Positions 8,376 to 58,028 of a DNA stretch of 64,000 nucleotides are shown here, piece by piece (position 1 is the first letter of the stretch; every line of letters begins with the position of its first letter). A program made the translations under genes and the position numbers. Below the pieces are notes generated by a model, which was not told the origin of the DNA, ran no database searches, and saw only the letters and a program-made list of their open reading frames with translations. Source of the stretch: Candidatus Woesearchaeota archaeon (lineage in GTDB: Archaea > Nanobdellota > Nanobdellia > Woesearchaeales > JACPBO01); NCBI GenBank assembly GCA_030651135.1, contig JAUSCS010000009.1, positions 22,844 to 86,843 of the forward strand, in the 5' to 3' direction.

Positions 8376-8378
8376 GAA

Positions 8379-8897: not shown

Positions 8898-10147
8898 AAA
8901 CAGAAGAGCTGAAATCATCAGACATTGAAGTTTATAATGCAATACAAAATGAATTAGAAAGGCAAAGAACAGAATTAAACATGATCCCTTCTGAAAGTTA
9001 CGCAAGCAGGGCTGTTTTAGAGGCAATGGGAAGTGTGCTGAACAATAAATATGCTGAAGGCTATCCTAAAAAAAGATATTATCAGGGAAATAAATATTGC
9101 GATGAAATAGAAACTATTGCGATTGAAAGGGCCAAAAAACTCTTTAATGCAGAGCATGCAAATGTGCAGCCAAATTCCGGGAGCCCTGCAAACATGGCAA
9201 TTTATTTTTCTGTCTTAAATCCCGGAGACAAAATAATGGGCATGGACTTAAGCCACGGCGGCCACCTGACTCACGGAAGCCCTGTAAATTTCTCAGGAAA
9301 GCTTTTCAGCTTTGCGCATTACGGCGTTGATAAAGAAACTGAAATGCTCGATATGGACAAAGTGAGGGAAATTGCGCTTAAAGAAAAGCCAAAGATGATT
9401 GTTTCAGGCTATACTGCATATCCGAGAACAGTTGATTTCAGGAGATTTCATGAAATAGCCCAGGAAATCGGAGCATATTCAATGGCAGATATATCTCATA
9501 TTGCCGGGCTTATAGTCGGAGATGTTCATCCTTCTCCATTGCCGTTCACAGATTTTGTGATGACAACAACGCACAAAACATTGAGGGGCCCAAGAAGTGC
9601 CATAATTCTTTGCAAGGAAAAATATGCAGCTCAACTGGATAAGGCAGTATTCCCTGGATTGCAGGGCGGACCGCATGAGCACACCATAGCCGGAAAGGCT
9701 GTCTGCTTTAAGGAAGCAATGGAGCCTGAATTTAAGCAGTATGCAATGCAGATCGTTAAAAATGCAAAAGCGCTTGCAGAAACACTCATGGCTAAGGGCA
9801 TAAAGCTGGTTTCAAATGGAACAGACAATCATTTGATTTTGATTGATCTTATCAAAACAAAATCAGCAGGAAAACAAGGCATGGGCAAAGAAATAGCTGT
9901 TGCGCTTGAAGAAGCAGGAATAGTCCTTAATGCAAACACAATCCCATTTGATCCCTCAACTCCGTTTAAGCCATCCGGATTAAGACTGGGAACTCCTATA
10001 TTGACGCAAAGGGGAATGAATGAAGATGAAATGAAGCAGATCGGAGAGTGGATTGCAGATATTATTGAACATCCAAATGATGCAGCATTAAAGCAGAAAG
10101 TAAGGCAGAATGTTCTTGATCTTTGCAGGAAGTTTCCGATTTACTGA
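8894..10147 (+). CDS. glyA: Serine hydroxymethyltransferase
   Basis: The PLP-lysine region TTTHKTLRGPRSAIIL and overall SHMT collinearity across 417 aa. The start overlaps the folA stop (ATGA). Confidence 0.9.
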   Translation: MKTEELKSSDIEVYNAIQNELERQRTELNMIPSESYASRAVLEAMGSVLNNKYAEGYPKKRYYQGNKYCDEIETIAIERAKKLFNAEHANVQPNSGSPANMAIYFSVLNPGDKIMGMDLSHGGHLTHGSPVNFSGKLFSFAHYGVDKETEMLDMDKVREIALKEKPKMIVSGYTAYPRTVDFRRFHEIAQEIGAYSMADISHIAGLIVGDVHPSPLPFTDFVMTTTHKTLRGPRSAIILCKEKYAAQLDKAVFPGLQGGPHEHTIAGKAVCFKEAMEPEFKQYAMQIVKNAKALAETLMAKGIKLVSNGTDNHLILIDLIKTKSAGKQGMGKEIAVALEEAGIVLNANTIPFDPSTPFKPSGLRLGTPILTQRGMNEDEMKQIGEWIADIIEHPNDAALKQKVRQNVLDLCRKFPIY

Positions 10148-10240
10148 TTAAGGCTGTGAATAGCAGTTAAGTGAAAATGATCCCTTTATCGCTTCTTTTA
10201 TCCGATACATTTTTAACTTAGTCTATTCATTTAATTTATC

Positions 10241-11017
10241 ATGGTACAAGTACAAACTTTTTCAGAAGGAAAGGTGAAAAACAGAAATGAGGATTATTTT
10301 AATTATAGTGAGAGTTGTTTTGTTATTGCCGATGGTGCTACTGATAAAAGCGGTCGAAATTATAATGGCCAAACAGGAGGAGAACTTGTTTCTCGAATTG
10401 TCGTAAATGAATGTTTATCAACCAATCTAAATGGAATTGAATTGATCAACCACATTAACAAAAAAATCAGGGAAGCATATACTAAACTGAACATTTTGAA
10501 AGATATCAAAGACCCAAAATATAGATTTACTTGCGGATTCATTTGTGTAAGGGTAATTGGCGGTAAAACAATAATCACTTATTTAGGAGATTTGGGTTTT
10601 AGAATTAATGGAATTGAAGTTTATCAGGAAATAAAACAAATTGACATTAATGATTCAGAAGAAAGATCAAAATATATTCGAGAAACAAATGACGTTGAAG
10701 GAAGCAGAAATCACATAATGCATTTACTCGTAAAACAATTCGAATATCAAAATAATCCCAATGACTCTTTGGGATATGGAGTAATTGATGGCTCTAAAAC
10801 ACCCTCTAAGTTTATAAAAACCTTTGAATACTATACTGAAAAAATAAAGACAATCGAACTATTTACTGATGGTTATTTTGATACATCCCAAGAAGTCTCA
10901 ATTAAAGGATGGGAAAAAGCTTTTGAAAAAGTTGAAGAAGAAGATCCAGATAAATGGAAAAAATATAAATCGACTAAATCTAAGGATGATAGAACGATAG
11001 CAATAATTACATTCTAA
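10241..11017 (+). CDS. PP2C/SpoIIE-like Ser/Thr phosphatase (tentative)
   Basis: The N-terminal NEDY...VIADGATD pattern resembles the PP2C metal-binding motif. Weak call. Confidence 0.35.
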   Translation: MVQVQTFSEGKVKNRNEDYFNYSESCFVIADGATDKSGRNYNGQTGGELVSRIVVNECLSTNLNGIELINHINKKIREAYTKLNILKDIKDPKYRFTCGFICVRVIGGKTIITYLGDLGFRINGIEVYQEIKQIDINDSEERSKYIRETNDVEGSRNHIMHLLVKQFEYQNNPNDSLGYGVIDGSKTPSKFIKTFEYYTEKIKTIELFTDGYFDTSQEVSIKGWEKAFEKVEEEDPDKWKKYKSTKSKDDRTIAIITF

Positions 11018-21775: not shown

Positions 21776-21871
21776 TTATTTTATAAAGCTATTGAAAACT
21801 TCATTTATTGCAGAAACAGAATAAAGCAAATAATATGCGCATATCATCAAGACAAATGCCTTTATTGGTAT

Positions 21872-21944
21872 AAGACAGGTGTCTTGATAAAAATCGAAAG
21901 ATTTATAAAGTCAGGTGTCTTAATAGTAATGAGACAGATGACTT
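21872..21944. promoter_or_regulatory. Three repeat operators (AAGACAGGTGTCTT, AAGTCAGGTGTCTT, GAGACAGATGACTT) upstream of the HEPN-MNT operon
   Basis: The first copy is a perfect palindrome AAGACA-GG-TGTCTT. The copies sit at 21872, 21908 and 21931. A TTTATAAAG TATA box lies at 21902-21910 between copies 1 and 2. The ATG is at 21948. Confidence 0.5.
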
Positions 21945-21947
21945 AAA

Positions 21948-22358
21948 ATGAAAGAAGAGAAGCACGATGAAACTTTAAAGGAAGTTTTAGATGAGATAGA
22001 GGCGGCGCTCAAAGACCCAAGGGGATTATTAGCGCATCAAAGGAGACTGGCTTTTTCGCTTTCTTTGGGAGCAACGAATCTCTTAGAACTTCATTTTCAT
22101 AAGCTCAGTATCATAAAAGAAGGATCGAAAATTAATCATTTATGGTTCAAAAAGAAAAAAGAAAAGGTTCTGGGGTATCTGCAGAAACAGATAATTTCAC
22201 CAATAAATTCTGTGCAGGACATAGATAAGGTTATTGAAATGGCCATCAAGATAGAAGAAAAAAGAGATGACCTGGCTTATGGCGCTCCTGCAACGGAGAG
22301 GGCATTGCAGGAAAAAATAAATCTGTTTTTCGAATTTAAAAAGATGTTAAAATGTTAA
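21948..22358 (+). CDS. HEPN-like protein, partner of the downstream MNT
   Basis: Small all-helical protein placed immediately before and overlapping a minimal nucleotidyltransferase. Three repeat operators lie upstream. Confidence 0.4.
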   Translation: MKEEKHDETLKEVLDEIEAALKDPRGLLAHQRRLAFSLSLGATNLLELHFHKLSIIKEGSKINHLWFKKKKEKVLGYLQKQIISPINSVQDIDKVIEMAIKIEEKRDDLAYGAPATERALQEKINLFFEFKKMLKC

Positions 22359-22951
22359 AGGCATACTCAGGATATTTTGCAGCATACCTGCTGAATAATT
22401 TGAAAAATACAGAAAATATAGAAAGGATCATACTTTATGGCTCTGTTGCAAAAGAAGAGGCCACGAAAGAGAGCGATATTGATATTTTTATTGAAGTTAA
22501 AAAAAAGACAGAAAAAATTGAGAAAGAATTAAAAGAAGCAGAAAAAAGATTTTATCAGAGCAGGGATGCTGCTTTATTCAAATCAAAAGGCGCAGATAAT
22601 AAATTTAATATTAAGATAGGAAAATTAAAAGACTGGAAAGAATTATACAGGAGCATAGCCTCCACCGGGATTGTCTTATACGGCCCATATGAAATAAAAG
22701 AAATTCCCTCCGGGGTTAAGCATTCCGTCATTGTTTTCTGGCAGAAAATAGGAAAAAACAGAGGAGCCTTTCTTAATAAATTATACGGCTTCAAAATCAA
22801 AGGCAAACATTATGCCGGCCTGATTTCAAAATTTGACGGAAAAAAACTTGGAAAAAGTTGTGTAATGTTTCCAATACAATATAAAGAAGATATATTCAGA
22901 TTATTAAAAGGATATGAAGTAATAGCGAAAATGATAGAGGTTTTTAGTTAG
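22352..22951 (+). CDS. Minimal nucleotidyltransferase (Pol-beta superfamily, MNT)
   Basis: LYGSVAKEEATKESDIDIFIEV matches the GS...DxD NTase signature. Overlaps the upstream gene by 7 nt. Confidence 0.6.
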   Translation: MLKAYSGYFAAYLLNNLKNTENIERIILYGSVAKEEATKESDIDIFIEVKKKTEKIEKELKEAEKRFYQSRDAALFKSKGADNKFNIKIGKLKDWKELYRSIASTGIVLYGPYEIKEIPSGVKHSVIVFWQKIGKNRGAFLNKLYGFKIKGKHYAGLISKFDGKKLGKSCVMFPIQYKEDIFRLLKGYEVIAKMIEVFS

Positions 22952-22963
22952 AGTTCTATTAAA

Positions 22964-23980
22964 TCATAGAGCTTGCTTAAATTGTGGATAGCACCCAGGA
23001 TAATAGTCCAGCTTGTCCTCATTCATCACAATAACGAAGTCATAGTGCTTGATTATATCTGAGAATTTGTCCCTTATATCCAGCATAATATTATGGAATG
23101 CGTTGAAATCATCTATTTCAAAATCCAGTTCAATATCCCATTCACCAATGCAGTTTATAATATATGTTAGATTCTTTAAATAATTGCAGTGCTGGAAGAA
23201 CTGGCTGTATTTTTGTTTTGTTAAGCTCCTGAACTTTATCAGTGCCTTGCAGTAAATCCAGTTGAATTTATTTAAGTTTAAGAATACCCTGTGGATCAAA
23301 ATAATATTCTCTTTTTTCAAATTTTTAATCCTGTAATTCACGATTCTTGGCGTGGTTTTCAGCCTCTGCGCAATTTCTATTATCGGCATTCTCGCATTAT
23401 TGACAAGGATTTTTATGATCTCCTCATCCACGGGATCTATTTTTAAATCATCTTTTTTGCCTCCCTGAAAAACAGCAGGGAAAGGCTCTTTATTTTCCAA
23501 AAGGTATTCCTTTCTCCAGTGAGGAACTCCTGTGCTGATTGAAGTTTCCCTTAAGCTTATGTGCTGGCTGAATTTTTCATCCAGTTCTTTTATCGCTTCA
23601 TTAAACTCATAAACATCTTTAACTATATACCCTGCAATTATATCAAATTTCCCGGAGCAGGTGGCAATCCATTCTGTCTTTTTATGCTGCTTTAAGAACC
23701 CGATAATTTCGCTTATTGTCTTTTTATCTGCGTTTTCAAGCGAAAGGTATATTTTATACTTTGAAAAGCCGAGCTTGTAAGTATCGATCACAGTAGAGAA
23801 TCTTGTGATGATGTTATCTTTTAAGAGTTTTTTAATCCTGTAATCCACAACCTGCTTGCTTAATCCTACTTTCTTGCCTATTTCTGAATCTGCCTGCCTG
23901 CAATTAACATCAAGCTGGTACAATATCTTTCGATCCTTCAGATCAAGGAATTCTGAGAGCATATTATGATATAATGACAA
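22964..23980 (-). CDS. Transcription regulator with two Lrp/AsnC-type HTH modules
   Basis: ILYQLDVNCRQADSEIGKKVGLSKQVVDYRIKKL, with a second HTH near residue 190 (IIKILVNNARMPIIEIAQRL). Divergent from the radical-SAM gene. Confidence 0.5.
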   Translation of the reverse strand: MSLYHNMLSEFLDLKDRKILYQLDVNCRQADSEIGKKVGLSKQVVDYRIKKLLKDNIITRFSTVIDTYKLGFSKYKIYLSLENADKKTISEIIGFLKQHKKTEWIATCSGKFDIIAGYIVKDVYEFNEAIKELDEKFSQHISLRETSISTGVPHWRKEYLLENKEPFPAVFQGGKKDDLKIDPVDEEIIKILVNNARMPIIEIAQRLKTTPRIVNYRIKNLKKENIILIHRVFLNLNKFNWIYCKALIKFRSLTKQKYSQFFQHCNYLKNLTYIINCIGEWDIELDFEIDDFNAFHNIMLDIRDKFSDIIKHYDFVIVMNEDKLDYYPGCYPQFKQAL

Positions 23981-24067
23981 TTAGTTTATAAATTTTGTTA
24001 TTTTGACAAAAAAATCAATAGAACATTTTAATTATCTATCAAGTTATTACTGTAATGTGATAAAATA

Positions 24068-25996
24068 ATGGCAAAACAAAAAAACTACAAAATCGCATTG
24101 TTTAGCTTACCTCCTTACCAGCCTGTTTATATGCACCCTGCAGTTCCTTATTTAACAGGTTATCTTAAAAAATATTTGCCTGATGTTGAAGTTGTTCAAA
24201 AAGATCTTAATACAGGCTCTTTGGATTATTTTTTAGGATCTACCCCGAAGTTCATGAGAAATATTGCTTCGTACAGGGATTTTCAGGGGCATAAACAAGC
24301 AAGAAGAGAACTATCTGCCAGAATAGAGCACGCAACAGAAGGAAGATTACATATTGTAAGAAACACTGTCAATTACGACTTAGCCCAAACAGGAGAGGAT
24401 TACAAATCTAGAACTGGATTGCTTCAAGTTGCTCAACAAAAAGAAAGAAACTTATTTTATGAATATTTCAGAACTGAAGTTCTTCCATCTTTAGAGGGAG
24501 TTAATCTTGTTGGTCTGTCTGTTAGCGACCAGAAACAATTGGTTCCTACAATGGTTTTAGCTTCTGTGATTAAAGAACAGTATCCTGATACCAAAGTTGT
24601 TATTGGTGGAAATATAATCACAAGAAATTACGATGTTCTTTCACAGGATAATGAATTGAATAGAAGGTTATTTGATCATTTTGATTATTTGGTTCATCAT
24701 GAAGGAGAAGTTGCAATTAAAGAATTAGTAGAAAGATTAAAAGAAGGTAAGGCTGTAGAAGGTGTCCCTAAACTTATTTACAGAGATGGTGGAAGAATCA
24801 AAGAAAATCTTCGGTTTGTTGTTGAAAATGTTAATGCCATTCCTGCACCAGATCTCGATGATTTAGTTGCTCAAGGAAACCATTGGACTCCTGAATTAGT
24901 AATTCCATATTTGATTGGAAGAGGTTGTGATTGGGGAGGTTGTAATTTCTGCGATATCCCTGCGGGTTATGATGGTTCTAGAACAAGAATGGAAAAAGTG
25001 ACAGGCAAGAAATTTGAAGTGGAAGGCAGTACTGGAAAAAGAAGAGTCCAAGATTTGGATAAGGTTATTGAAGACCTTCGAGACCTAAAAGAAAGATATA
25101 GCACAAAGTATTTTAGTTTTGGGGATGAAGAATTGGCTGGAGATTCATTAAGAGATTTTGTTGATAAAATTTTAGAATCTGATTTAGATATAGAATGGGA
25201 ATGTTATGGAAGGATTGAAGATATTTATTTAGATAAAGACTTTTGCAAAAGATTAAGAGAGGCCGGATGTAGATTTATACAGTTCGGTATTGAATCTGCC
25301 AGCCAAAAAGTTCTGGACACAAGTAATAAAGGCTACAAATCCGGATTGACTGGAAGAGTTTTGAGAAATACATATGAAACCGGGATTATGAATCATGCCT
25401 TTATTCTAATTGGATTGCCAGATGACAGTATAATTGAGGCATCTCGGCTAATTACTTTCTTAGAAGAAACTGCTCAATACATTACTACTATGAAGCCAAT
25501 AATGTATAAAGTTTCAAAATGGTCTCCTATGGCATTGAAGCCAGAAACTTTTGGACTAATGCTAGATAAAGAAAATACTCCAGACCTTGAACAAAGAATA
25601 AGTGTAGAAAAAGATTCCGGGATGATGAGCAGGCATAAAGCAGGAGCATTTGTTAGATTATTAGAATTATGGGTTGCACAACATCATAAAGTGAATCCTG
25701 CAACAAGCGAATATATGTTTGCCCAGAGACTGTTTCTTTCACGAGACGAATTGGAAGAATTTGGGAGAAGCGTTGATTACCAAGTTGAACTCGGATCCAA
25801 TGATTTAAAAGCAATAAAACGAGTATTTCACGGATTAGTTCAGGAATTAAAAACAAAAGCGTACGATGGTGCTGTAAATAGAGATATAAGAATAGAATAT
25901 GAACAGATGTATTTGGAATTGAAAGATCAAAGAGCGCCTGAAAACTTAGAGGAGATTATTTCTTTATTAAGAAAAACAGCTTCAGTGAATTACTAA
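24068..25996 (+). CDS. Radical-SAM enzyme with N-terminal B12-binding-like domain and Cx4Cx2C cluster
   Basis: The N-terminal roughly 250 aa are Rossmann-like. GRGCDWGGCNFCDIPAG carries three Cys spaced Cx4Cx2C. There is a C-terminal extension of about 200 aa. Confidence 0.55.
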   Translation: MAKQKNYKIALFSLPPYQPVYMHPAVPYLTGYLKKYLPDVEVVQKDLNTGSLDYFLGSTPKFMRNIASYRDFQGHKQARRELSARIEHATEGRLHIVRNTVNYDLAQTGEDYKSRTGLLQVAQQKERNLFYEYFRTEVLPSLEGVNLVGLSVSDQKQLVPTMVLASVIKEQYPDTKVVIGGNIITRNYDVLSQDNELNRRLFDHFDYLVHHEGEVAIKELVERLKEGKAVEGVPKLIYRDGGRIKENLRFVVENVNAIPAPDLDDLVAQGNHWTPELVIPYLIGRGCDWGGCNFCDIPAGYDGSRTRMEKVTGKKFEVEGSTGKRRVQDLDKVIEDLRDLKERYSTKYFSFGDEELAGDSLRDFVDKILESDLDIEWECYGRIEDIYLDKDFCKRLREAGCRFIQFGIESASQKVLDTSNKGYKSGLTGRVLRNTYETGIMNHAFILIGLPDDSIIEASRLITFLEETAQYITTMKPIMYKVSKWSPMALKPETFGLMLDKENTPDLEQRISVEKDSGMMSRHKAGAFVRLLELWVAQHHKVNPATSEYMFAQRLFLSRDELEEFGRSVDYQVELGSNDLKAIKRVFHGLVQELKTKAYDGAVNRDIRIEYEQMYLELKDQRAPENLEEIISLLRKTASVNY

Positions 25997-26017
25997 GAAT
26001 TATGGCCGATCCTAACA

Positions 26018-26490
26018 CTAAACTGTTACATTAGCAATCTTCATCTTCACAAACTTATTTATCTCCAGATAAAGCGCTCCGGCTCCTGACATGAGGATCA
26101 GCAGCAGGAATTCGTAAATGCTCAATGCGGTTGTATCAAATACATTCTGCAATGCCGGAATATAGACAACTGATATGACTGCCAGCAAAGAAACCAGCAC
26201 TGACAAAATGAGCCATTTGTTCTTGAAAAATCCGACTCTTGATAATGGATAATTCACAGACCTGCACGAAAATGCCTGGTAAAGCTCGAACATGGCAATC
26301 ACAATGAGCCTTCCATCTGCGGGTATTTTTGCGCCTGTTTCCAGAATTATTATATCGCCAGGTACAAGATTGATGGCATCTATTGCTTCGACTTCATTGT
26401 TTCTCAGAACACCTGCCTTTAAGGCTGAGCTTTTGAATTGATTCAGTAAAATCTCAAAAGGGCTGGTTCTTTTGCCTTCTTTAAGCTAGT
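26018..26490 (-). pseudogene. Decayed P-type cation ATPase: actuator-domain fragment fused to the last TM segments, with no start codon
   Basis: Read upstream of the 94-aa ORF in the same frame, the sequence gives ...VLRNNEVEAIDAINLVPGDIIILETGAKIPADGRLIVIAMFELYQAFSCRS.... This is an A-domain motif (PGDIv.l..GdkiPADgRl) joined directly to the C-terminal TM region of the same pump. The phosphorylation and nucleotide-binding domains are missing. Confidence 0.5.
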
Positions 26491-26598
26491 TAAGGCCTAT
26501 TGCTGCAGCCTTTTTGCAGCTTCCTCATTGCTTAAGCCTTTTCTTGAGCTGTTTAGGCTTTCAGAGTTTCACCAGCTGTTTTTTGATAATATTCCATC

Positions 26599-26922
26599 TT
26601 ATTCTTTTTTCTGCCATCTCAATGATTCTTTTTTTATTTCTTTCAGATTATTCAAGAAATGCTCTAAGCAGTCAATGCCGCAGAACGATGCCTTTTTCTT
26701 GAAGTCATCCGGGCCGAAGATCAAGGTATAGTTGCTTGTGGAGTACGGATCAAGCTCATTTGCGCAAACCTTGCATATTGTCTGATGCAGTTTTTCCCTT
26801 TCTTTTATTTTGTTTTCAACGAATTTTCTCAGGTGAAAGCCGCCTTCCTCAAGGTCTCTTTTTATCTTTTTTAATTCATCTTCATCAAGGTAATCTACCA
26901 CGTCCCTTAATCTTTTGTCCAT
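26599..26922 (-). CDS. Zinc-finger protein (CxxC...CxxxC)
   Basis: ICKVCANELD...CGIDCLEHF. Coupled to an upstream ribbon-helix-helix gene by an ATAATG overlap. Confidence 0.35.
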   Translation of the reverse strand: MDKRLRDVVDYLDEDELKKIKRDLEEGGFHLRKFVENKIKEREKLHQTICKVCANELDPYSTSNYTLIFGPDDFKKKASFCGIDCLEHFLNNLKEIKKESLRWQKKE

Positions 26923-26924
26923 TA

Positions 26925-27068
26925 TTTCACCTCGGTTTTTGAGAACAGCTTTATCTTGATATATGAAGAAACAGAGATCCCTAGCTTTTTTGCTTCCTCT
27001 TCAATTGCAGCCTTTTCATGGTCATTAAGGTAAACATGGACCATGTTGTTTCTGGTGTTTTTTTTCAT
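26925..27068 (-). CDS. Ribbon-helix-helix (CopG/Arc-like) small regulator
   Basis: My translation: MKKNTRNNMVHVYLNDHEKAAIEEEAKKLGISVSSYIKIKLFSKTEVK. A beta-strand then two helices, typical of RHH. Under 60 aa, so not in the track. Confidence 0.4.
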
Positions 27069-27081
27069 TGTGCGGGTTCTG

Positions 27082-27153
27082 TATTTAGTATTATTATAGT
27101 ATTATTTAGGTATTTATATAGTATTTTATCAGTATTAGTATTTAAAGATTGTG
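27082..27153. repeat. Degenerate AGTATTW tandem repeat tract in an intergenic region
   Basis: tgtatttagtattattatagtattatttaggtatttatatagtattttatcagtattagtattt contains at least seven GTATT cores. Confidence 0.5.
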
Positions 27154-27211
27154 ATTTTCTAATAAACAACATGAAGAAGTGTGTTTAGTCTAAAAATAAG
27201 ATATTCTGAGT

Positions 27212-28333
27212 TTACAACCCGCGACCCTTCATAAAGTATTTCGCATCACCGCCATCAACAAGCCTTGCTATCTTCTTTGTTTCGGTATCCACAATAAAGA
27301 TATGCCCGATAGGGAGATAAACAAGTATGTGCCTGTCGTCAGGAAGCCATGTTGGGTCACTATAACCACTATATCTATCACCTCTCCATTGGATGATAGT
27401 CTCTGTATAATTTGGATTGGCATACATCTTTTTCATCTTAGCACTCAAATCATGTTCTATGGCAGCGGGAGCATAAGAGCTCATTTTAATACTGCCTTCG
27501 TTTATGAAAATTACTTTTTTGTAATCATTGGAGGATTCATAACCATCCCCCATTCCAGATGTAAAATCTCGTTGATATAAAGATAAAGAAGCATTGTTAA
27601 TACAGGATTCGAAAGGGTCGTCTACGTATCCTTCTTCCCATGGCTTTTTCTGAGCATAACTACAAATTAAAACAGCCTTTTCAAATGAAAAGTCATATTC
27701 GAAAAATAAATCACGCCCATCGTTCTCTGAAAATATCCGTGAACCATAAACAAGAACTTTTTTGCCCTCTTTGTAAAAATAAGCATTTACTCCAACAGCT
27801 GCACTAAATCTTGAAATATCCTCTAATTCTTTTAATTCGGTAACTTGATTAGTATTAAGGTCTACGATATAAAAATATGGTTGGTCTAGTCCATTTATTT
27901 GACCATCAATGGAATGAAGTAATTTTGGATTATAATTACTATCTGTTTCAGTAGAAATAACAAACAACCAGTCTCCATCAGGTGAGAAACGTGATAAGCG
28001 TATCTTCTCACCTTTAGTTTGGAAAACAGAGGATGTTTCAGTACCATTCTCATTAGTTATATATATCTGTTTGCCTAAATGAATAGCAATCTGGTGTTTA
28101 GCAGGGTCAAGCATAAAATGGTCTACTAAACCATCAAATATTTTTTTGCTATTTGTTCGGTCGGCCTGTATTGAGTAGAGTCCATCTTGAGTAGCATAAA
28201 ATATTGTTACATTAGGAGCCCATGAAATTCTTTCTTCAAATTCTATAGGAAACTGTGAACTATTGCAGCCAGATAATAAAAGAACGTTTACTAATAAAAA
28301 CAGAGATAGTGTAATCCTTAATTTCAACTGCAT
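27212..28333 (-). CDS. Secreted lipoprotein with beta-propeller (PD40/TolB-like) repeats
   Basis: Signal peptide plus the lipobox LLSGCNSS, then repeated hydrophobic/aromatic-Gly-Asp blades. Confidence 0.45.
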   Translation of the reverse strand: MQLKLRITLSLFLLVNVLLLSGCNSSQFPIEFEERISWAPNVTIFYATQDGLYSIQADRTNSKKIFDGLVDHFMLDPAKHQIAIHLGKQIYITNENGTETSSVFQTKGEKIRLSRFSPDGDWLFVISTETDSNYNPKLLHSIDGQINGLDQPYFYIVDLNTNQVTELKELEDISRFSAAVGVNAYFYKEGKKVLVYGSRIFSENDGRDLFFEYDFSFEKAVLICSYAQKKPWEEGYVDDPFESCINNASLSLYQRDFTSGMGDGYESSNDYKKVIFINEGSIKMSSYAPAAIEHDLSAKMKKMYANPNYTETIIQWRGDRYSGYSDPTWLPDDRHILVYLPIGHIFIVDTETKKIARLVDGGDAKYFMKGRGL

Positions 28334-28380
28334 AAGATTTTTTAACGAGTATTCTCTATTTAAAACTTTTCTTTTATATC

Positions 28381-28551
28381 CTAGCTCTCAAACCTTCCCT
28401 TGACCTTGTATTTGTCTGATTTCAGGATCTCTTCAACTTCCTTGTCAAACGAGTTGTCAGGCTTGTTGAACAGCCAGTGGAAGACAAAGAACGAAACAAA
28501 CAGGACAACGGCGATTACAATGCCCTCTTTTGAGAATATTTCGATCATATT
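28381..28551 (-). CDS. Small single-TM protein (56 aa)
   Basis: My translation: MIEIFSKEGIVIAVVLFVSFFVFHWLFNKPDNSFDKEVEEILKSDKYKVKGRFES. Confidence 0.25.
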   Translation of the reverse strand, partial: NMIEIFSKEGIVIAVVLFVSFFVFHWLFNKPDNSFDKEVEEILKSDKYKVKGRFES

Positions 28552-28556
28552 AGCTG

Positions 28557-28925
28557 CTATATCTTTGGAATATATAAATTTTTTGCATATCTGACCTTTA
28601 CTTCCTCAAGATGGTGCATTGGCTTGCAGTCTTCAGCTGTTTTTTTGCTGAAAAAAGGATAATCCCTGCATGCCTTCGGCAGTATGTTATATATTTTGCA
28701 TGACGTTGTGCCGTCGGTATTTTTTACCAGGAAGACGCAGTCTCCGTTGATCAGCCTCATATAGCCTTCCTGATCCTTCCTGAACGGATGGTTCATGAGA
28801 AAATCAGCATGGCCTGCAGCCTCTATCTTGGTTATATCTGATTTATTCAGCCTGAAAAGAAGCCTGCAGCACTGTCCGCAGTTCTCGCATCTGAAGCTTT
28901 TCTGTGTAATCCTCTTTTTCGTCAT
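28557..28925 (-). CDS. YkgJ-family CxxCxxCC domain protein
   Basis: FRCENCGQCCRL matches the CxxCxxCC signature. Paralog of 12265-12774. Confidence 0.5.
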   Translation of the reverse strand: MTKKRITQKSFRCENCGQCCRLLFRLNKSDITKIEAAGHADFLMNHPFRKDQEGYMRLINGDCVFLVKNTDGTTSCKIYNILPKACRDYPFFSKKTAEDCKPMHHLEEVKVRYAKNLYIPKI

Positions 28926-29509
28926 TCGATCTGCCTTATTATTCTTAAAAAATTATTGTCATTTATGTTATTTTTATAAATCTTGCAGCTTTCAATCATT
29001 TCTTTCCTGTTTATTTTTATACTTTTCTCTTTTAACAGTTCTGAAACAAAATCTGAGACCAGAAAAACCGAGAACTGCGTGACATTGGCTGGCCTTTCGA
29101 TATAATGAGCGCGCTCGAAGTCGACCAGAACAGGTTTATTATGCTTGGTTATTATAATGTGCTTGTGCGGATGCGACATCTCTTCCTTGTTTATTTTCAG
29201 CTTGTCTAATTGATATAATTGATCATAGAGTGTTTTTATCATTTTCAATATTATATTTTTATTGTTCTCTTTTTCAATAAAATCCAGAAAATAAATGCCG
29301 TCAATAAACTCCATTCCCAGCTTTCCATTTTTAAAAAATAAAGCCTTTGGCCCGATATTCTTTTTGTTCAGTATTTTCAAGAATCTGAATTCATTCTCGA
29401 TCCTGTTCTCAGCCCTGCTTTCAGGATTTTTTATTTTGATGATTATTTTCTTGTTCTTGTATTTGGAAAAATAAATCAATCCGCGCTTGCCTTTTTTGTA
29501 GATCTGCAT
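28922..29509 (-). CDS. Small atypical protein kinase (Bud32/RIO/Kdo-kinase-like)
   Basis: An N-terminal Gly-rich/Lys region, a catalytic-loop-like HPHKHIIITKHN, and a DFG-equivalent LVDFERA. Confidence 0.4.
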   Translation of the reverse strand: MQIYKKGKRGLIYFSKYKNKKIIIKIKNPESRAENRIENEFRFLKILNKKNIGPKALFFKNGKLGMEFIDGIYFLDFIEKENNKNIILKMIKTLYDQLYQLDKLKINKEEMSHPHKHIIITKHNKPVLVDFERAHYIERPANVTQFSVFLVSDFVSELLKEKSIKINRKEMIESCKIYKNNINDNNFLRIIRQIE

Positions 29510-29530
29510 TTTGTTATCACTTCAATTTTC

Positions 29531-30097
29531 CTATAATTCTTCCAGAATGTCTTTCTTTTTATATTCTACGTTGCTTCTTTTTAATATCTCATCAAATTCC
29601 ATTGAATGTTCAAGAGGAATTTTTACAACGCCTGCCGAAATCCTTATCCCATTAAGCATCTTAAGAATGCCTTCTTTTTTTCTGCCTGCAAGGATATAGT
29701 TAAATTTTACTTTTTGAGAATGGTTTAATCCTTTTAAATTATACCAAAATAAGGAATACGACCTAAATCCGAGTGTTTCACAAAATTTTCTATTTTTAAA
29801 AATGCTTATGCCCTCAAAAAATACACCCGTTCTTGCCATGAATTCATTTGAAAATAAATCTTTCAGCAATATCTGTTTTATATCAATGTCTTCTTCAAGC
29901 TTTTCTTTTATTTTATTTTTTATTGCCTGAATGGCATTGAGCCTTTCCTCCAAACTTCCTGCCAGAAAGATAACAAGTATATCTATATCTCTGGCTTTAT
30001 ATTTTCCTTTAACCAGCGATCCGTATACAACAATATCAAATATTTCCTTTCCTGCTTTTTCAGATTTCAAGCATTTTTCTAATTTTTTCAATATCAT
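29531..30097 (-). CDS. Minimal nucleotidyltransferase (MNT)
   Basis: IFDIVVYGSLVKGKYKARDIDILVIF matches the GS...DxD motif. Confidence 0.6.
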   Translation of the reverse strand: MILKKLEKCLKSEKAGKEIFDIVVYGSLVKGKYKARDIDILVIFLAGSLEERLNAIQAIKNKIKEKLEEDIDIKQILLKDLFSNEFMARTGVFFEGISIFKNRKFCETLGFRSYSLFWYNLKGLNHSQKVKFNYILAGRKKEGILKMLNGIRISAGVVKIPLEHSMEFDEILKRSNVEYKKKDILEEL

Positions 30098-30398
30098 TTT
30101 TTATCAATTCCGCGGATTCCTTGTCCATCTTTTTAGTGTAACTGTCTTGGTAAAAAGGGAAATCCCTGTCCACTATTTTGTAGATTTCTCTGAATTTCTC
30201 CTCAAGAACCCTGAATCTGTCAGAGTGGGAAGTCGGGACACGGCCTTCTTTTCTGAGGATGTATATATCGCATAAAGCAACTAGTGCTTTAAAGAAAAGA
30301 GTCGTAGCTGTATTATGCTTGCCTTGTTTAAATGCGCTTACACCGAGCTCGTAATACTCATAAAAATTTTCTTTTAATATTCCTTCCTTTTCATTCAT
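30060..30398 (-). CDS. HEPN-domain protein (Rx4-6H motif)
   Basis: RVPTSHSDRF carries R-x4-H. All-helical, 112 aa. It overlaps the MNT start. Confidence 0.5.
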   Translation of the reverse strand: MNEKEGILKENFYEYYELGVSAFKQGKHNTATTLFFKALVALCDIYILRKEGRVPTSHSDRFRVLEEKFREIYKIVDRDFPFYQDSYTKKMDKESAELIKNDIEKIRKMLEI

Positions 30399-30443
30399 GT
30401 ATGATACAACTTAATATGAGTATTTAAGCTTTTTGGTTGTAAT

Positions 30444-30509
30444 ATACAACAATTCATACAGTACAACAAAATAACGTTATTTTGTAGTTTATGTTGTACA
30501 ATACAACAA
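30444..30509. promoter_or_regulatory. TACAACAA direct repeats plus palindrome TGTTGTA-CAA-TACAACA upstream of the HEPN-MNT pair
   Basis: The motif occurs at 30444-30452 and 30462-30470 and as an inverted pair at 30493-30509, within the 118-bp gap between the TrmB gene end and the HEPN start. Confidence 0.45.
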
Positions 30510-30516
30510 AGCTCAA

Positions 30517-31254
30517 TCATTTCCTCGCCTGTTTCCACATTAGCTTAAATTGATTCAGGTAGCTCATTGCATTGTCCTTGTTCTTAATAACAACAGCAAT
30601 CGGCGGCTTTGCAGTCCAGATAAATAAGATTACTGTGTCTTTGTAGATCATTGTGTCTGTAATGCTTGAATATTCCTTTGGATGAAATCTTGCTTCGCCA
30701 ATATAGTCTTTTAATAATTGAGAATTTTTTTCTTTTATTTCTTCATTAAAGATGCAATACGATTTTATTCCTTGCTTTCTCTTTCTTTTCTGCCACAGCT
30801 CCCAGTATGGGCCCATTATATCTTTAAACAATCCAGAAACTCCAAAATCATAATATTCTCCTTTATTGCCAAGCTCTTCCAGTATTTTGTCCAATACAGA
30901 GCGAATTCCTTTAATGCCATAATAAACAGTAACTTCCTGCTTTTCCTTGCTTGCTTCTAATCTTGATTTAAGAATCGGCATTATTTCTTGTAATTTTTCC
31001 TGCCTTTCCTTTAAAACATCCATCAATCGTTCAGGGCTTGCAGGCTCAAAATGCTGCTTTTTGCCTTTAATAACAGATGAAACAAGGCCTTTTTCCTTTA
31101 ATCGCTGCAGGATCTGATAAGTTGTTCCCCTATGCAGGCCTGTTTTCTTGATTACTGCCCCTGCTAAAGTTGATCCTGTTTCTATTAATGCAAGATAGAC
31201 TTTTGATTCTGCTTCTGACAAGCCTAGCTCTTCTAAAACATCAAGTTCCGGCAT
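30517..31254 (-). CDS. TrmB-family transcription regulator
   Basis: N-terminal LGLSEAESKVYLALIETGSTLAGAVIKKTGLHRGTTYQILQRLKEKGLV HTH plus a TrmB-like C-terminal domain. Confidence 0.6.
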   Translation of the reverse strand: MPELDVLEELGLSEAESKVYLALIETGSTLAGAVIKKTGLHRGTTYQILQRLKEKGLVSSVIKGKKQHFEPASPERLMDVLKERQEKLQEIMPILKSRLEASKEKQEVTVYYGIKGIRSVLDKILEELGNKGEYYDFGVSGLFKDIMGPYWELWQKRKRKQGIKSYCIFNEEIKEKNSQLLKDYIGEARFHPKEYSSITDTMIYKDTVILFIWTAKPPIAVVIKNKDNAMSYLNQFKLMWKQARK

Positions 31255-31255
31255 T

Positions 31256-31885
31256 TTATACCATCAACTGCCTTATTATGTTGATAAATTCCTCTGCAGT
31301 ATTGATCGCTCGTATTGCATTGTATTCCTCTACACTAAGTGTTACATTATAGGTAAAGGTTTCTCTGTCATTTCTCACCAGGTCATACTGTTTAGCATAC
31401 TCGTAGGCTTTTTCTTGAAAGTCTTCAACACTGATTTTTTGAATTTGAGCAGTAGTTTCGAAAGTCTTTAAATATTCTTCATAAAGATGTTTTGCTAACT
31501 TTTTAGTTTTGACTAAATAATACAGTATAATATACTCCGTCGTTATATGAACTCCCCTTAAGCCTTCCCTTAGTTTTGTTTTGTATTTTAATGCCAAAAA
31601 TGCATGAACAATATAGTACATGGAATAATAAGCAGCAGCTACAGCTTCTGCATAATCTTTATATCCTTCACCGACCTTGAGGATCTTTTTATCAGAGTCC
31701 TCTTTAGAAGCATTATAGATGAGTTTTGCTGTTTCCAATCTGTTCCTGCTTTTTTCCCGATAGAAATCAGCAATTTGGTGCTTTTCTGTTTCAGAGAGCT
31801 TTTTCAGATCATTCGATTGGGTAAGCTCTAAAATTCGTTTTTCTGCAATTATGATCTTCTTTTCGATTAAATCCTGCATTTTCAT
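31256..31885 (-). CDS. HEPN-like protein, partner of the upstream HTH-MNT
   Basis: Helical 209-aa protein. Paralogous to 50746-51303 (shared AAAYYSMYYIVHAFLAL / LAYYSMYHCLLAALF segment). Confidence 0.4.
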   Translation of the reverse strand: MKMQDLIEKKIIIAEKRILELTQSNDLKKLSETEKHQIADFYREKSRNRLETAKLIYNASKEDSDKKILKVGEGYKDYAEAVAAAYYSMYYIVHAFLALKYKTKLREGLRGVHITTEYIILYYLVKTKKLAKHLYEEYLKTFETTAQIQKISVEDFQEKAYEYAKQYDLVRNDRETFTYNVTLSVEEYNAIRAINTAEEFINIIRQLMV

Positions 31886-32490
31886 CTTTTATACGCCCCA
31901 TTCAGTAATTGATAATACCCTTCTACACCATATAAAATAACATGGTATTTTCTCGCTTCATTTCCTATATTTAATGCACCGGGATTAAGAATCATTTCCC
32001 TAAAATCATTTGTATCGATAAAATTCGGCGCTTTTTTTACTTTTGTGTACGCTTTGTGCATTGCATCTTCTATTTCACGTATATCTTTTTTATCCCGAAC
32101 AATAATTAATAAGTCAAGGTCGGATTTTGCTGTTTGAAGTCCTTTAGCATAAGAGCCAAAAACAAGCAAAATAAAAAAAAGATTCTTGGCAGATATAAAA
32201 ATATCTTCAAGCATCACTTGTATCCACGGGTATTTTTGCAGTAAGTCCTTTTTTCTTTTTAGTTCAATATCAACAAAAACAGGGGTTGGCGCGAATTCAT
32301 TTAATGTGACAATCTGTGCAGGGGGAACAGGCTCTTTTTTAATGATGTTTTTCTTCTCCAGATCAGCAATATTATTGTAAACCAAGGTATATGACTTGCC
32401 TAGTTTTTTAGCAATGCCTCTAATGGTAGGCTTCTCTTCGGGATGGCTTAATAAAAAAACTAAAATTTGTTCTTGGGTCTTGGTTAGCAT
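31882..32490 (-). CDS. HTH-fused minimal nucleotidyltransferase
   Basis: An N-terminal wHTH (TIRGIAKKLGKSYTLVYNNIADLEKKNII) then FGSYAKGLQTAKSDLDLLIIV. Paralog of 51278-51835. Confidence 0.6.
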   Translation of the reverse strand: MLTKTQEQILVFLLSHPEEKPTIRGIAKKLGKSYTLVYNNIADLEKKNIIKKEPVPPAQIVTLNEFAPTPVFVDIELKRKKDLLQKYPWIQVMLEDIFISAKNLFFILLVFGSYAKGLQTAKSDLDLLIIVRDKKDIREIEDAMHKAYTKVKKAPNFIDTNDFREMILNPGALNIGNEARKYHVILYGVEGYYQLLNGAYKR

Positions 32491-32701
32491 TTTTTATTAT
32501 ACTAATGGTAGTATCAACTGATATTAATTATAAGTTATATAAAAATGTTTTGTTTTTGACTCTGACAATACAGGCAAGTAAAAGCAAAGCGTCTATTTAA
32601 ATCTTTCTATTCTGTCGTCTTGATTAAGACTACAATAATTTAAATACCTGCCACACTATTACTACTATGAGGTAAGTAAATATAAGATGATGTGAGGAAA
32701 A

Positions 32702-33061
32702 ATGAAAACAAACCGAGATACGGTATTGATGAGCGGACTGCACGACCTGGTCGCAGAGGGGGTCTTGCATTTCAGTGAATATGATGTGGATTGCATAAAG
32801 AGTAACTTGGACAGCCACACCACATACTACATAGACTCGACCAAGAATCTGGGCACTCACATAGCCGACATGGTAAAAAGCGACAAGATAGGTATAGTGG
32901 CCAGAAACTGGACCATAATGGACCGCGTGGATACCGCACTGACAAAGAGAGATTATCGATGTGATGACTCTTCGTGGGGCAACCATGGCAGTTATGGGAT
33001 GTACAGTTACCACAAGGATACCAGACTGAATAAAACCCATCTGAGAATAACAAAAGACTGA
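32702..33061 (+). CDS. Hypothetical protein, first gene of a compositionally atypical cassette
   Basis: 119 aa. Codon third positions are conspicuously G/C-rich (gac ctg gtc gca gag ggg gtc ...), unlike the surrounding genome. No family recognised. Confidence 0.4.
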   Translation: MKTNRDTVLMSGLHDLVAEGVLHFSEYDVDCIKSNLDSHTTYYIDSTKNLGTHIADMVKSDKIGIVARNWTIMDRVDTALTKRDYRCDDSSWGNHGSYGMYSYHKDTRLNKTHLRITKD

Positions 33062-33102
33062 GATTAACTAAAAAAAATAATAAATCAAGGAGGTAAAGGA
33101 AA

Positions 33103-50745: not shown

Positions 50746-51303
50746 TCAAAAATGCAAACATTTTTGACATTTGAGCATGCTCAGAATTTTCCACATATGA
50801 AAAAGGTTGGCTTTCTGCCACCAGTCAAAGACTGGATGGAAAATTCTGACATTTCCATGATACTCTTTTATCTTCTCTTCATTTAGATTAGCCATAAGAT
50901 TGCTCATCTCTGTAATGAATTCTTCAGCAATCTTGATAGAATTAGATGCTTCTTTCTGGTTAACTGCAAAATCAACATAGTACTGCTTGTCTACCCTCTC
51001 AGATTTTGCATTTGAAATTTTGGCATTGTCAATTCCAAATGCTTTTTTGAGAAGTATTATTGAGGCAGCATGATTTTCGCATTTTATGCCTATCCTAAAC
51101 AATGCCGCAAGAAGGCAATGGTACATGGAATAATATGCCAATGCAACTGCGTCTTTAAGGTTGCCTATCTTCAATAGAGCCTTTGCTGAAGATAAAGATT
51201 CATTTGACCTTAGGATGTACGCTTCTTTAATATCCTCACTTGGCTCAACTTCCTGCAGTTTTTCCTGCTTATGCAGCTTAATCAAAAAATTTATTTTTGT
51301 CAT
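50746..51303 (-). CDS. HEPN-like protein (paralog of 31256-31885)
   Basis: Shared LAYYSMYHCLLAALF segment. Overlaps the upstream HTH-MNT gene. Confidence 0.4.
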   Translation of the reverse strand: MTKINFLIKLHKQEKLQEVEPSEDIKEAYILRSNESLSSAKALLKIGNLKDAVALAYYSMYHCLLAALFRIGIKCENHAASIILLKKAFGIDNAKISNAKSERVDKQYYVDFAVNQKEASNSIKIAEEFITEMSNLMANLNEEKIKEYHGNVRIFHPVFDWWQKANLFHMWKILSMLKCQKCLHF

Positions 51304-51835
51304 AGTAAATCTCAGTGCCTTTTATTATCACATGATTTTTTTCTATTTCTTTAATAAGCAGGCTATCCTTATTATAGCTGCCTATTTTTACGCTTATTTT
51401 TGAATCTATCTGCTCCACTTCTTCTTTTAGCTTAGCATCTTTGGTGTCTATGTAGATATCAATGTCGCTGCCTTTAGCTGCAATGCCTTTTGCATATGAG
51501 CCAAATAGGATTGCCAAGCTTATTTTTTGATTTCTCCTGATTAGCTCTATGATCCTCCTTAAATGAGGGTACTTCTTTAATATCTCTAATAGCTTATGCG
51601 GTTCAACAAGATAAGCATATTGCTTTGCCTCCAGTGTTTTTTTCAGAAAAAATACCTTATTTCTTCCTTCTTGCTTAAAATCAACAATATTATCTCCGTA
51701 CAATTCATGGACTTTTCTTGCAATGGTGGTTTGATTGGTTTTTAACAGCCTAGCAAGCCCTCTGATGTGATTGTCGCTCTTGAAAAGCGATTCGATGATT
51801 TTAATATTGTAATTATTTTGTGACATATGTAACAA
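51278..51835 (-). CDS. HTH-fused minimal nucleotidyltransferase (paralog of 31882-32490)
   Basis: N-terminal HTH plus LAILFGSYAKGIAAKGSDIDIYIDT. Confidence 0.6.
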   Translation of the reverse strand: MLHMSQNNYNIKIIESLFKSDNHIRGLARLLKTNQTTIARKVHELYGDNIVDFKQEGRNKVFFLKKTLEAKQYAYLVEPHKLLEILKKYPHLRRIIELIRRNQKISLAILFGSYAKGIAAKGSDIDIYIDTKDAKLKEEVEQIDSKISVKIGSYNKDSLLIKEIEKNHVIIKGTEIYYDKNKFFD

Positions 51836-56839: not shown

Positions 56840-57187
56840 CTAGCTCCCATAATACGAGCTTTTCTTATAACCCAGCTTCAATCTCGCATCATCATATGCC
56901 TTATGATCCTCCAAGATTATCTCGATGAAATCTTTGTTTTGCTCTTTGATCAGTACAGCTCTCACATCAGAGGCTATTTTCCTGAAGAACACATACAAAT
57001 GCTTAAATTCCTTCTTTGAAGGGACAGAGCCAAGCTCCTTGTTTTCTTTGCATCTTCTGCACCACTCGATAAGGTCATTTAACATCCCTTCTTTTAATTT
57101 GACAATGTAATCATCAAAATTTTTGTTAAACTTTATTTGGTTTCCAAAGATCTCAAGCAATTTCTGCTTTGCTTTTTTGTCTTCCAT
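56840..57187 (-). CDS. Small helical protein, likely HEPN/DUF86-like partner of the upstream NTase
   Basis: 115 aa. Overlaps the end of the NTase gene 57153-58028 by 35 nt, like the other pairs. Confidence 0.3.
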   Translation of the reverse strand: MEDKKAKQKLLEIFGNQIKFNKNFDDYIVKLKEGMLNDLIEWCRRCKENKELGSVPSKKEFKHLYVFFRKIASDVRAVLIKEQNKDFIEIILEDHKAYDDARLKLGYKKSSYYGS

Positions 57188-58028
57188 AAATCATCTCCTC
57201 GTATGCGTTCTTGAATCTTACTAAATGGCTGTTTGGCTTGATGTTCTTAATCGATTCTTCAAGCGTTTTTATATAAGTATGGACTTCGACGTATAAATAT
57301 GTTTCTGAAAAAATATTTTTGCACAATTCTTTCATAAGCATATCGAGATGCTCTAGTTTGATTTTTGATGATATTTCTTTCAGCTCCCTGCCATTAAGCA
57401 GCCTGTTCCTGCAAAAAAGATTGTAATCGAAGACAAGCCTTCTTACAGACTCCGGCTTTTTTTCTTTCCTCATATGCTCAATTACTGCCTCATGGTATGT
57501 TCCCATCAGCCTTGATAAAGAGGGCTTTTTCTTCTTCGCGTTATTTGGTATCATGAAATTAGATGCTGAAATCAATGAAGCTGACTGAAATACAGGATTG
57601 GTTAATCTTTTCTCTGATAGGAAGATCACGTGCTTATTTTCATCCCATTTTTCCTTGTAGCCCTTTTTTGCAATGATAAAAACATCAATATCATTAAATT
57701 CCTTGGAGAACAAAAAAGAGCCGGCTATGAAGACTTTGTCGTGCTTCTTTGAATAGCCGTCTATGAGCTTCTTGGCTTCCGCTAATCTTGCCGGAATTAT
57801 TTCACTAGATCCACTAACCCAGTATTCTCTGTCCTTTTGTTCCCTTGAAAGCGAGTCGAGTGCTTCCATCTTCTTCTTCACAGATGTGTAAAGCGACTTT
57901 TTCTCGGCATTTGAAAGTCTAAGGCGATTACTGTACTTTTTCAGAACACTGAACTGTTTTTCTGTGAATATCAGAGGAACAAATAGCTCTTCTTTCTCCG
58001 CTACTATTTTTAATATTTTTTCATTCAT
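57153..58028 (-). CDS. Nucleotidyltransferase-domain protein
   Basis: KVFIAGSFLFSKEFNDIDVFIIA matches the GS...DxD motif. Confidence 0.5.
   Translation of the reverse strand: MNEKILKIVAEKEELFVPLIFTEKQFSVLKKYSNRLRLSNAEKKSLYTSVKKKMEALDSLSREQKDREYWVSGSSEIIPARLAEAKKLIDGYSKKHDKVFIAGSFLFSKEFNDIDVFIIAKKGYKEKWDENKHVIFLSEKRLTNPVFQSASLISASNFMIPNNAKKKKPSLSRLMGTYHEAVIEHMRKEKKPESVRRLVFDYNLFCRNRLLNGRELKEISSKIKLEHLDMLMKELCKNIFSETYLYVEVHTYIKTLEESIKNIKPNSHLVRFKNAYEEMIYGRQKSKAEIA

Follow-up and report, generated by a model that had tools for sequence, protein, structure and literature searches.

Class II HEPN/nucleotidyltransferase cassettes with an R-x4-Y signature and conserved upstream repeats in a Woesearchaeota genome

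Introduction

HEPN/MNT, in which a HEPN protein is paired with a minimal nucleotidyltransferase (MNT), is regarded as the most abundant toxin-antitoxin-like module in archaea. To our knowledge, a mechanism has been demonstrated only for its class I (DUF86, RX4HXY), and the PF05168-type class II that dominates in archaea is uncharacterised. Here we analyse a stretch of 64,000 nucleotides (nt), referred to throughout as the window, from a metagenome-assembled Candidatus Woesearchaeota genome (DPANN; locus tags Q7J54_048xx). The window contains five gene pairs, labelled A to E, of which A, B, and C lie inside an interval of 10.6 kb and D lies 19 kb off. Pairs A to D are class II HEPN/MNT cassettes in two architectures, and each is a self-contained, horizontally mobile, and dispensable unit of the toxin-antitoxin-like kind.

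In class I, as described for HepT/MntA, the tyrosine of RX4HXY receives three AMPs from a nucleotidyltransferase (NTase) carrying GSX10DXD (PMC7641770). Class II, found more often in archaea, combines PF05168 with PF01909 and lacks RX4HXY (Yao et al. 2020, PMC7641770). HEPN-T proteins (PF05168; structures AF0298 2hsb, TT1696 1ufb, and ST0689 1wol) are often without the canonical histidine and have instead “a conserved H elsewhere”, and their C-terminal tyrosine has been proposed as a nucleotidylation site (PMC3710099). PDC-M05, a candidate defence system in PADLOC, consists of a wHTH-type NTase (M05A) plus a HEPN protein (M05B) and is enriched in archaea, DPANN genomes being rich in such candidates (PMC12988326).

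Of these systems, class II is the kind to which the cassettes belong. As there, a small GSx10DxD NTase is encoded beside a HEPN-fold protein of about 110-210 amino acids (aa) without RX4HXY, the genes overlap, the hosts are archaeal, and an R-x4-Y motif and a helix-3 histidine are common to AF0298 and the cassette partners. The cassettes differ from the described class in that A and B have the reverse gene order, an extra C-terminal domain on the NTase, and partners that fall below every profile threshold, and in that the HEPN protein of C has an insertion of about 40 aa. Because no function is known for the class, “the same kind” here refers to architecture.

Results

Gene pairs and their nucleotidyltransferases

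An earlier note on this DNA, made from the sequence and a list of its open reading frames (ORFs), had described five HEPN-like/MNT pairs in several architectures. All ten ORFs were recovered, and the description holds for A to D, which fall into two architectures: a HEPN-like gene followed by an NTase with an extra C-terminal domain (A and B), and an NTase with an N-terminal winged helix-turn-helix (wHTH) followed by a HEPN gene (C and D). It does not hold for E, whose partner has no HEPN support. The pairs are composed as follows, with residue percentages giving conservation.

A partner, 21948..22358, + strand: 136 aa, all-helical, HEPN-like, without a Pfam family; invariant H64 and K-R106-D-D-x-A-Y111-G
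A NTase, 22352..22951, + strand: 199 aa; MNT domain with GSx10DxD at residues 30-44, plus a C-terminal domain of ~80 aa; Pfam Polbeta 5e-11
B partner, 30060..30398, - strand: 112 aa, UPF0332-type HEPN fold; invariant H58, R61, Y83, and Y87; R78 92%, D85 92%
B NTase, 29531..30097, - strand: 188 aa; MNT domain with GSx9DxD, plus an A-like C-terminal domain; Pfam Polbeta 3.7e-7
C NTase, 31882..32490, - strand: 202 aa; N-terminal wHTH and MNT domain with GSx10DxD; Pfam NTP_transf_2 3.6e-8
C partner, 31256..31885, - strand: 209 aa; PF05168-type HEPN enlarged by a ~40-aa insertion; invariant R110-G-V-H113 and R174-E-x-F-T-Y179
D NTase, 51278..51835, - strand: 185 aa; wHTH and MNT domain with GSx10DxD; Pfam Polbeta 4.5e-12; the true start is probably the ATG at 51826
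D partner, 50746..51303, - strand: 185 aa; HEPN PF05168 4.2e-9, above the curated cut-off; R103-VDKQ-Y108
E protein, 57153..58028, - strand: 291 aa; candidate divergent NTase with GSx8DxD at residue 103
E partner, 56840..57187, - strand: 115 aa; member of a small family, not HEPN by any test

The two genes of each pair overlap, by 7 nt in A (22352-22358), 38 nt in B (30060-30097), 4 nt in C (31882-31885), 26 nt in D (51278-51303), and 35 nt in E (57153-57187), the earlier note having given 4-38 nt for the local pairs.

All four NTases of A to D score above the Pfam curated cut-offs for NTP_transf_2/Polbeta, and G-S-x(8-10)-D-x-D is present in all five proteins, with a spacer of 10 in A, C, and D, 9 in B, and 8 in E. 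The E protein, which has a weak DUF6932 match over the motif region (E 0.016) and no sequence match in the PDB, is by its motif probably a divergent NTase. Against the NCBIfam MntA_antitoxin model the NTases score 20-33 bits, below its cut-off of 60. The wHTH domains of C and D give sub-threshold Pfam matches to MarR/TrmB/HVO_A0114. These two NTases had been called paralogues with a fused HTH; the wHTH and the relatedness stand, but the relationship is distant, the two being 27% identical. Both match PADLOC PDC-M05A over nearly the full length (C 1.7e-14, residues 2-165; D 4e-11), and the two-gene architecture and archaeal enrichment of PDC-M05 fit as well; in contrast, the match to M05B is marginal for D (E 0.013) and missing for C, and the antiviral role of PDC-M05 is itself unconfirmed.

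The A and B NTases share their C-terminal domain of ~80 aa, as alignment A4 shows. No Pfam or PDB profile assignment was obtained for this domain, and one of its homologues weakly matches PaaX_M, the central Cas2-like domain of PaaX (E 0.017). The domain (window positions 22700-22951 and 29531-29780) has the strongly conserved pattern W...N-R-G-x-F-L-N-K-x-Y-G...G-K-S, and we consider it a candidate operator-binding or RNA-binding domain.

HEPN assignment of the partners

The earlier note had called for profile searches of both proteins. These place the NTases of A to D, as given above, and assign just one partner to HEPN, that of D, which also matches AF0298 (2hsb) by phmmer at 4e-4 with its motif aligned to REESDY. 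The C partner stays below threshold against Pfam HEPN (E 0.14). Its family profile, however, aligns with the D HEPN by hhalign with 93% probability (E 3e-7), and of its homologues two come with a precomputed PF05168 match and three bear the name UPF0332 in JGI. For the A, B, and E partners no match was found in Pfam, NCBIfam, or PADLOC; none of the 240 homologues listed for A and B has a precomputed Pfam domain, and hhalign links the A and B partners neither to C nor to each other. The up-down helical bundle of the HEPN fold was found, in the case of A and B via structure prediction. The partners of A and B fall short of every profile threshold and are therefore new families, restricted to DPANN and missed by Pfam, NCBIfam, and PADLOC.

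With class II taken as an MNT beside a PF05168/UPF0332-type HEPN protein without RX4HXY, C and D belong to it as judged from sequence, and B belongs to it by its fold plus an AF0298-like signature. The membership of A is probable.

For the E partner, neither hhalign of its family alignment (A5) nor Pfam or the PDB gave an assignment. The family has 35 representatives among 1.84 billion proteins in an exhaustive HMMER search. Past a strand and a helix at the N-terminus, its members have the conserved pattern R76...K81..N84..F-I-E..L..H95-K-Y-Y-D. Read by eye from the alignment, it resembles that of RelE/ParE-type toxins.

An R-x4-Y motif at the HEPN active-site position

None of the five partners has RX4HXY. 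Family alignments of 120 sequences each were used to locate the conserved residues. Strings that can be read as Rx4-6H do occur (A 25-30, B 53-58, C 106-113), but as active sites they are mislocated: they fall in the first half or the middle of the fold, and their arginines are conserved at 78%, 35%, and 77%. The canonical HEPN position, at 70-83% of the protein length and just before the last helix, is occupied in A to D by R-x4-Y, which in A, C, and D is the motif listed above for each partner and in B reads R78-DFPF-Y83-Q-D85-S-Y87. The arginine is conserved at 92-99% and the tyrosine at 99-100%, and no conserved histidine is found at R+4 to R+6. Helix 3 opens with a further conserved residue, a histidine at 99-100% (A H64, B H58, C H113). 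In the earlier note, a lack of Rx4-6H together with a failure of profiles to assign HEPN was to count against the pairs; the motif is indeed absent from the active-site position, but a profile does assign D.

The signature recurs in solved UPF0332 proteins, as ...KTH... and L-R-EESD-Y in AF0298 and as R-NRSD-Y in 9xbd, of which 9xbc is a deposited Y-to-F variant. The combination of R-x4-Y with a helix-3 histidine fits the literature on HEPN-T and class II (PMC3710099, PMC7641770).

Strict pairing, patchy distribution, and variable context

Cassette A was found at 23 loci in only 22 of 185,579 GTDB species representatives, all of them DPANN-labelled or mislabelled TPA bins, with two copies in one genome. 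For B, the relatives in JGI metagenomes number at least 232, and 80 of their loci were retained; C was found in five further genomes. Pairing is strict: the A NTase directly follows its partner at 23/23 loci, the B NTase adjoins its partner at all 67 loci with room downstream, and C is always wHTH-NTase then HEPN (5/5 further genomes). The MNT-before-HEPN order of C, D, and E is reversed in A and B, and consistently so at the 23 and 67 other loci.

The flanks are different in each genome examined and are of a housekeeping kind (GatD/E, Fic, ribosomal proteins, eIF2-gamma, AspRS, MCM, glycosyltransferases, Band7). Where other genes of the window are shared at the same locus, the cassette is more conserved than they are: 67/66% against 47% and 59% in L014, 69/65% against 49% in L018, 55/51% against 38% in L025, 69/61% against 47% in L045, and 69/60% against 52% in L050. 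Identities of 65-85% and fixed lengths had raised the reading of the cassettes as core, vertically inherited genes, which we dropped because of their patchy occurrence, variable context, and duplicated and decayed copies. Each cassette is rather a self-contained, horizontally mobile, dispensable toxin-antitoxin-like unit, and the families are specific to DPANN Nanoarchaeota (Woesearchaeota, Pacearchaeota). L031 was set aside as a comparative strain, being the same genome assembled from another sample.

Decayed copies of cassette A were found at two loci. In L028 (a Woesearchaeota metagenome-assembled genome, or MAG; 7743-10246) the partner is cut after codon 57 by a 2.1 kb insertion sequence encoding a 616-aa DDE transposase (PF01609, 1.3e-6), and in L030 the partner has an internal deletion and a frameshift. 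Both NTases are full-length with GSx10DxD intact. The loss of the partner with retention of the NTase argues against the NTase being a toxin that needs its partner, and it fits the partner as the harmful or dispensable component. L013 looked like the converse, its NTase broken and its partner whole, but was rejected, as the break is a scaffold gap of Ns.

Promoters and co-inherited operators

The earlier note had pointed to repeat operators upstream of two pairs, and the boxes at A and B prove to be real, above chance, and conserved across many genomes. The promoter regions of the four cassettes are as follows.

A promoter/operator, 21849..21944, + strand: four palindromic TTAAGACAnnTGTCTTAA boxes at 21849-62, 21872-85, 21908-21, and 21931-44; TATA TTTATAAA at 21902-09
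B promoter/operator, 30396..30507, - strand: GTTGTAnnnTACAAC boxes at 30493-507, 30436-450, and 30396-410; degenerate box at 30457-470; TATA TTAAATA at 30421-27
C promoter/operator, 32499..32545, - strand: TATA at ~32536-45; palindrome TATCAGTTGATACTA at 32509-23; third half-site TAGTAT at 32499-504
D promoter, TATA at 51850-57, - strand: TGTAA-N8-TTACA palindrome between the TATA and the ATG at 51826

The A boxes (AAGACAnnTGTCTT) sit two on either side of the TATA, which is fused to box 3, and the end of box 4 is 3 nt from the ATG. This layout, with box starts near -95, -72, -40, and -17 plus the TATA, is found at ~20 orthologous loci in unrelated contexts. At B, the box at 30396-410 abuts and overlaps the ATG, and the layout recurs at 66 metagenomic loci, with boxes near -111, -71, -53, and -13 and the TATA near -33; strict boxes have a median of 2 per 130 nt across these loci, as against 0.05 per 130 nt locus-wide. 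At C, the order is TATA, then an 18-bp palindrome with half-sites TAGTATCAA and TTGATACTA, then the third half-site, and it is kept at 5/6 loci. In L112 (3340-3395) both half-sites are changed symmetrically, TATCAA and TTGATA having become TATAGA and TCTATA, the pattern that binding by a protein dimer would predict; the matching protein pair of L112 could reveal the wHTH residues that set DNA specificity. With 0-1 mismatch allowed, the A, B, and C boxes occur in the window only at their cognate promoters.

The cassette transcripts have little or no leader. Boxes over the TATA and the start site of essentially leaderless operons occupy the classic position of an archaeal repressor site. Since the boxes move together with the cassette, autoregulation by the cassette proteins is the simplest reading.

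Discussion

A putative type VII-like mechanism

The likeliest reading of the cassettes, to which we give an even chance, is by analogy that of an autorepressed toxin-antitoxin system of type VII kind, in which the NTase nucleotidylylates the invariant tyrosine of its partner. The cassette products would repress their own promoter, in C and D via the N-terminal wHTH of the NTase and in A and B probably via the extra C-terminal domain of the NTase or via the protein complex. The NTase, catalytically intact by its motif, would modify the tyrosine of R-x4-Y, which lies where HEPN RNases have Rx4-6H, and this modification would keep the HEPN protein inert. Should the modification lapse, the HEPN protein would bind or cleave RNA, leading to growth arrest. 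The DNA binding, the tyrosine nucleotidylation, and the toxicity in this scheme are all steps that we infer. HepT/MntA, the model for it, is likewise a two-gene operon of NTase and HEPN genes with GSx10DxD and a conserved tyrosine next to the HEPN motif, the residue that is oligo-AMPylated in HepT. Unlike HepT/MntA, the cassettes are without RX4HXY and have the tyrosine at the position of the histidine, with no catalytic His or Asp there; their NTases match the MntA model only below its cut-off, and toxicity and AMPylation are putative in their case.

Several observations weigh against this reading. The canonical Rx4-6H, or its variant with aspartate, is found at the active-site position of no partner, so that RNase activity is putative, and the searchable literature reports no class II pair with an experimental characterisation. 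In the cassette proteins of A and B a DNA-binding domain was not identified. The asymmetry of decay comes from two loci, one of them from a co-assembled MAG. The A, B, and C partner families were found on no IMG/VR viral contigs, no mobility genes stand beside the cassettes, and identities of 60-85% with fixed length are unusually high for toxin-antitoxin genes.

Alternative explanations

The main rival is a domesticated two-subunit NTase. The HEPN-like protein would then be its non-catalytic subunit, there to bind the substrate or to regulate, as happens within the fused kanamycin, lincosamide, and aminoglycoside nucleotidyltransferases; the target of the pair would be a small molecule, a protein, or RNA, and its activity a normal cellular one under ligand control, without any toxin. 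We think this possible but unlikely. The fused NTase-HEPN enzymes (KNTase/ANT(4'), LinB, ANT(6)) are single chains, whereas the cassette proteins are separate and much smaller polypeptides under a putative autoregulatory operator, and no sign of a small-molecule substrate was seen. A passive scaffold would have no need of near-invariant Arg, Tyr, and His; nor does a domesticated enzyme sit well with the patchy distribution and the duplicate and decayed copies, with the lack of a fixed metabolic neighbourhood, or with the multi-box, putatively autorepressed operator that accompanies each cassette, a feature typical of toxin-antitoxin modules. A related idea, for A and B only, is more speculative and in our judgement improbable: that they are not toxin-antitoxin systems but a DPANN-specific, autoregulated two-protein NTase switch, with a HEPN-derived sensor or substrate subunit stripped of all RNase residues and keeping only His...R-x4-Y, and an NTase whose C-terminal domain, possibly Cas2-like, reads the four-box operator or an RNA, coupling nucleotide or energy status to gene expression in minimal-genome organisms. 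If true, this would give the large class II HEPN/MNT group its first function. Very unlikely, to our mind, is a reversal of roles in A and B, by which the NTase would be an AbiEii/MenT-like toxin that nucleotidylates tRNA and the upstream HEPN-like protein its antitoxin. The order of HEPN-like gene first and NTase second is the usual antitoxin-first order, the role of toxin fell to the MNT in the original MNT/HEPN prediction (cited in PMC3710099), AbiE is enriched among DPANN genomes (PMC12988326), and AbiE/MenAT too is an autoregulated two-gene module with an antitoxin-like gene followed by an NTase. However, the cassette NTases match the MntA_antitoxin and PDC-S09/M05A models and not AbiEii/DUF1814, the upstream protein is HEPN-like and not a wHTH protein, and in L028 and L030 an intact NTase has outlived the HEPN-like gene, which would be lethal were the NTase an unneutralised toxin.

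A different kind of alternative, the defence/addiction island of the earlier note, would have the 10.6 kb interval acquired or kept as one unit, its regulators, kinase-like protein, and YkgJ proteins cooperating with the HEPN/MNT pairs. What speaks for it is the density of three cassettes in 10.6 kb and four to five in 64 kb, a slightly lower GC content in the interval (0.34-0.37 against 0.38-0.40), a P-type ATPase C-terminal fragment and a small ribbon-helix-helix (RHH)-led pair inside the interval, and TrmB-type genes that abut both wHTH-NTase cassettes in this genome. The interleaved TrmB, Lrp, RHH, kinase-like, and CxxCxxCC (YkgJ) genes that it named are present; the genes between the cassettes, which are of an ordinary kind, also include Elp3 (686 bits), a B12-dependent radical SAM enzyme, and a lipoprotein-like protein, and the Lrp/AsnC regulator is a double one. 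No PADLOC matches beyond HTH cross-matches were found among the interleaved genes, and no tRNA or integrase lies at the borders of the interval. Nor does the clustering recur: it is absent from the 108 loci of other genomes (23 + 80 + 5), where the cassettes are solitary, and at the 23 A loci neither B nor C comes within 10 kb. The kinase-like and YkgJ genes stand beside B at 0/80 loci, and TrmB-like genes stand beside B at 3/80 (distant homologues) and beside C at 0/5. Two narrower proposals, an operon of the B partner, the B NTase, the kinase-like gene, and YkgJ, and TrmB as a dedicated regulator of B or C, were rejected as well, neither linkage being seen in other genomes. A second NTase/HEPN pair does occur close to A in L019 and close to B in L070 and in L109, no more often than modules this abundant would lead one to expect. 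The crowding of three cassettes into 11 kb is particular to this genome; it does not make a functional island, a reading to which we accord a low probability, and it is a caution against calling islands from local density in one genome.

The cassettes are unusually clean test cases for class II, offering tiny proteins, three almost invariant residues (His, Arg, Tyr) that are candidates for catalysis or as acceptors, sharply defined co-inherited operators, and two natural partner knock-outs. With two HEPN-like families invisible to Pfam, NCBIfam, and PADLOC, censuses of defence and toxin-antitoxin systems in DPANN at present undercount them.

Other features of the window and of related loci

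A full-length TrmB gene (30517-31254, - strand) lies 1 nt downstream of cassette C. Upstream of D by 30 nt is 51866-52366 (- strand), which encodes a 166-aa homologue of the TrmB C-terminal domain only, without the HTH (32% identity, E 4e-18). The region 32630-33100, upstream of C, contains only mutually overlapping ORFs on both strands with no family matches and may be non-coding or hold decayed genes.

The RHH gene of the interval (26922-27068, - strand) encodes a 48-aa NikA-like protein (PF21983, 1.1e-7) and overlaps by 1 nt a 107-aa ORF with cysteine pairs and no family match (26599-26922, - strand); the two may be another small antitoxin-led pair. The P-type ATPase fragment is a 94-aa ORF (26018-26302, - strand) whose match to P-type cation ATPases is confined to their C-terminal part (PF00689, 3.8e-17); it has the look of a gene remnant and suggests past rearrangement or decay in the interval. 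Two long antisense ORFs within the NTase/partner genes of A and B, 22555-22806 (- strand) and 29931-30275 (+ strand), were rejected as genes, their apparent conservation by tblastn at all orthologous loci being a by-product of coding-strand conservation.

The sole tRNA of the window, at 55062-55214 (- strand), scores 42 bits with Rfam and was missed by ARAGORN; its length of 153 nt implies an intron. Just upstream of a CBS-domain gene and pair E, 58902-60824 (- strand) encodes a 640-aa protein with an internal NTP_transf_2 domain (2.8e-5), the sixth NTase of the window and not a minimal one.

In other genomes with cassette C, small DUF2283 gene pairs were seen within a few kb of it (L006 8744-9255, L007 1542-2098, L113 2452-3074, all unrelated genomes), and L114 has a ParE/MazE pair near C. 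Small toxin-antitoxin-like modules may have a weak tendency to gather in the same regions.

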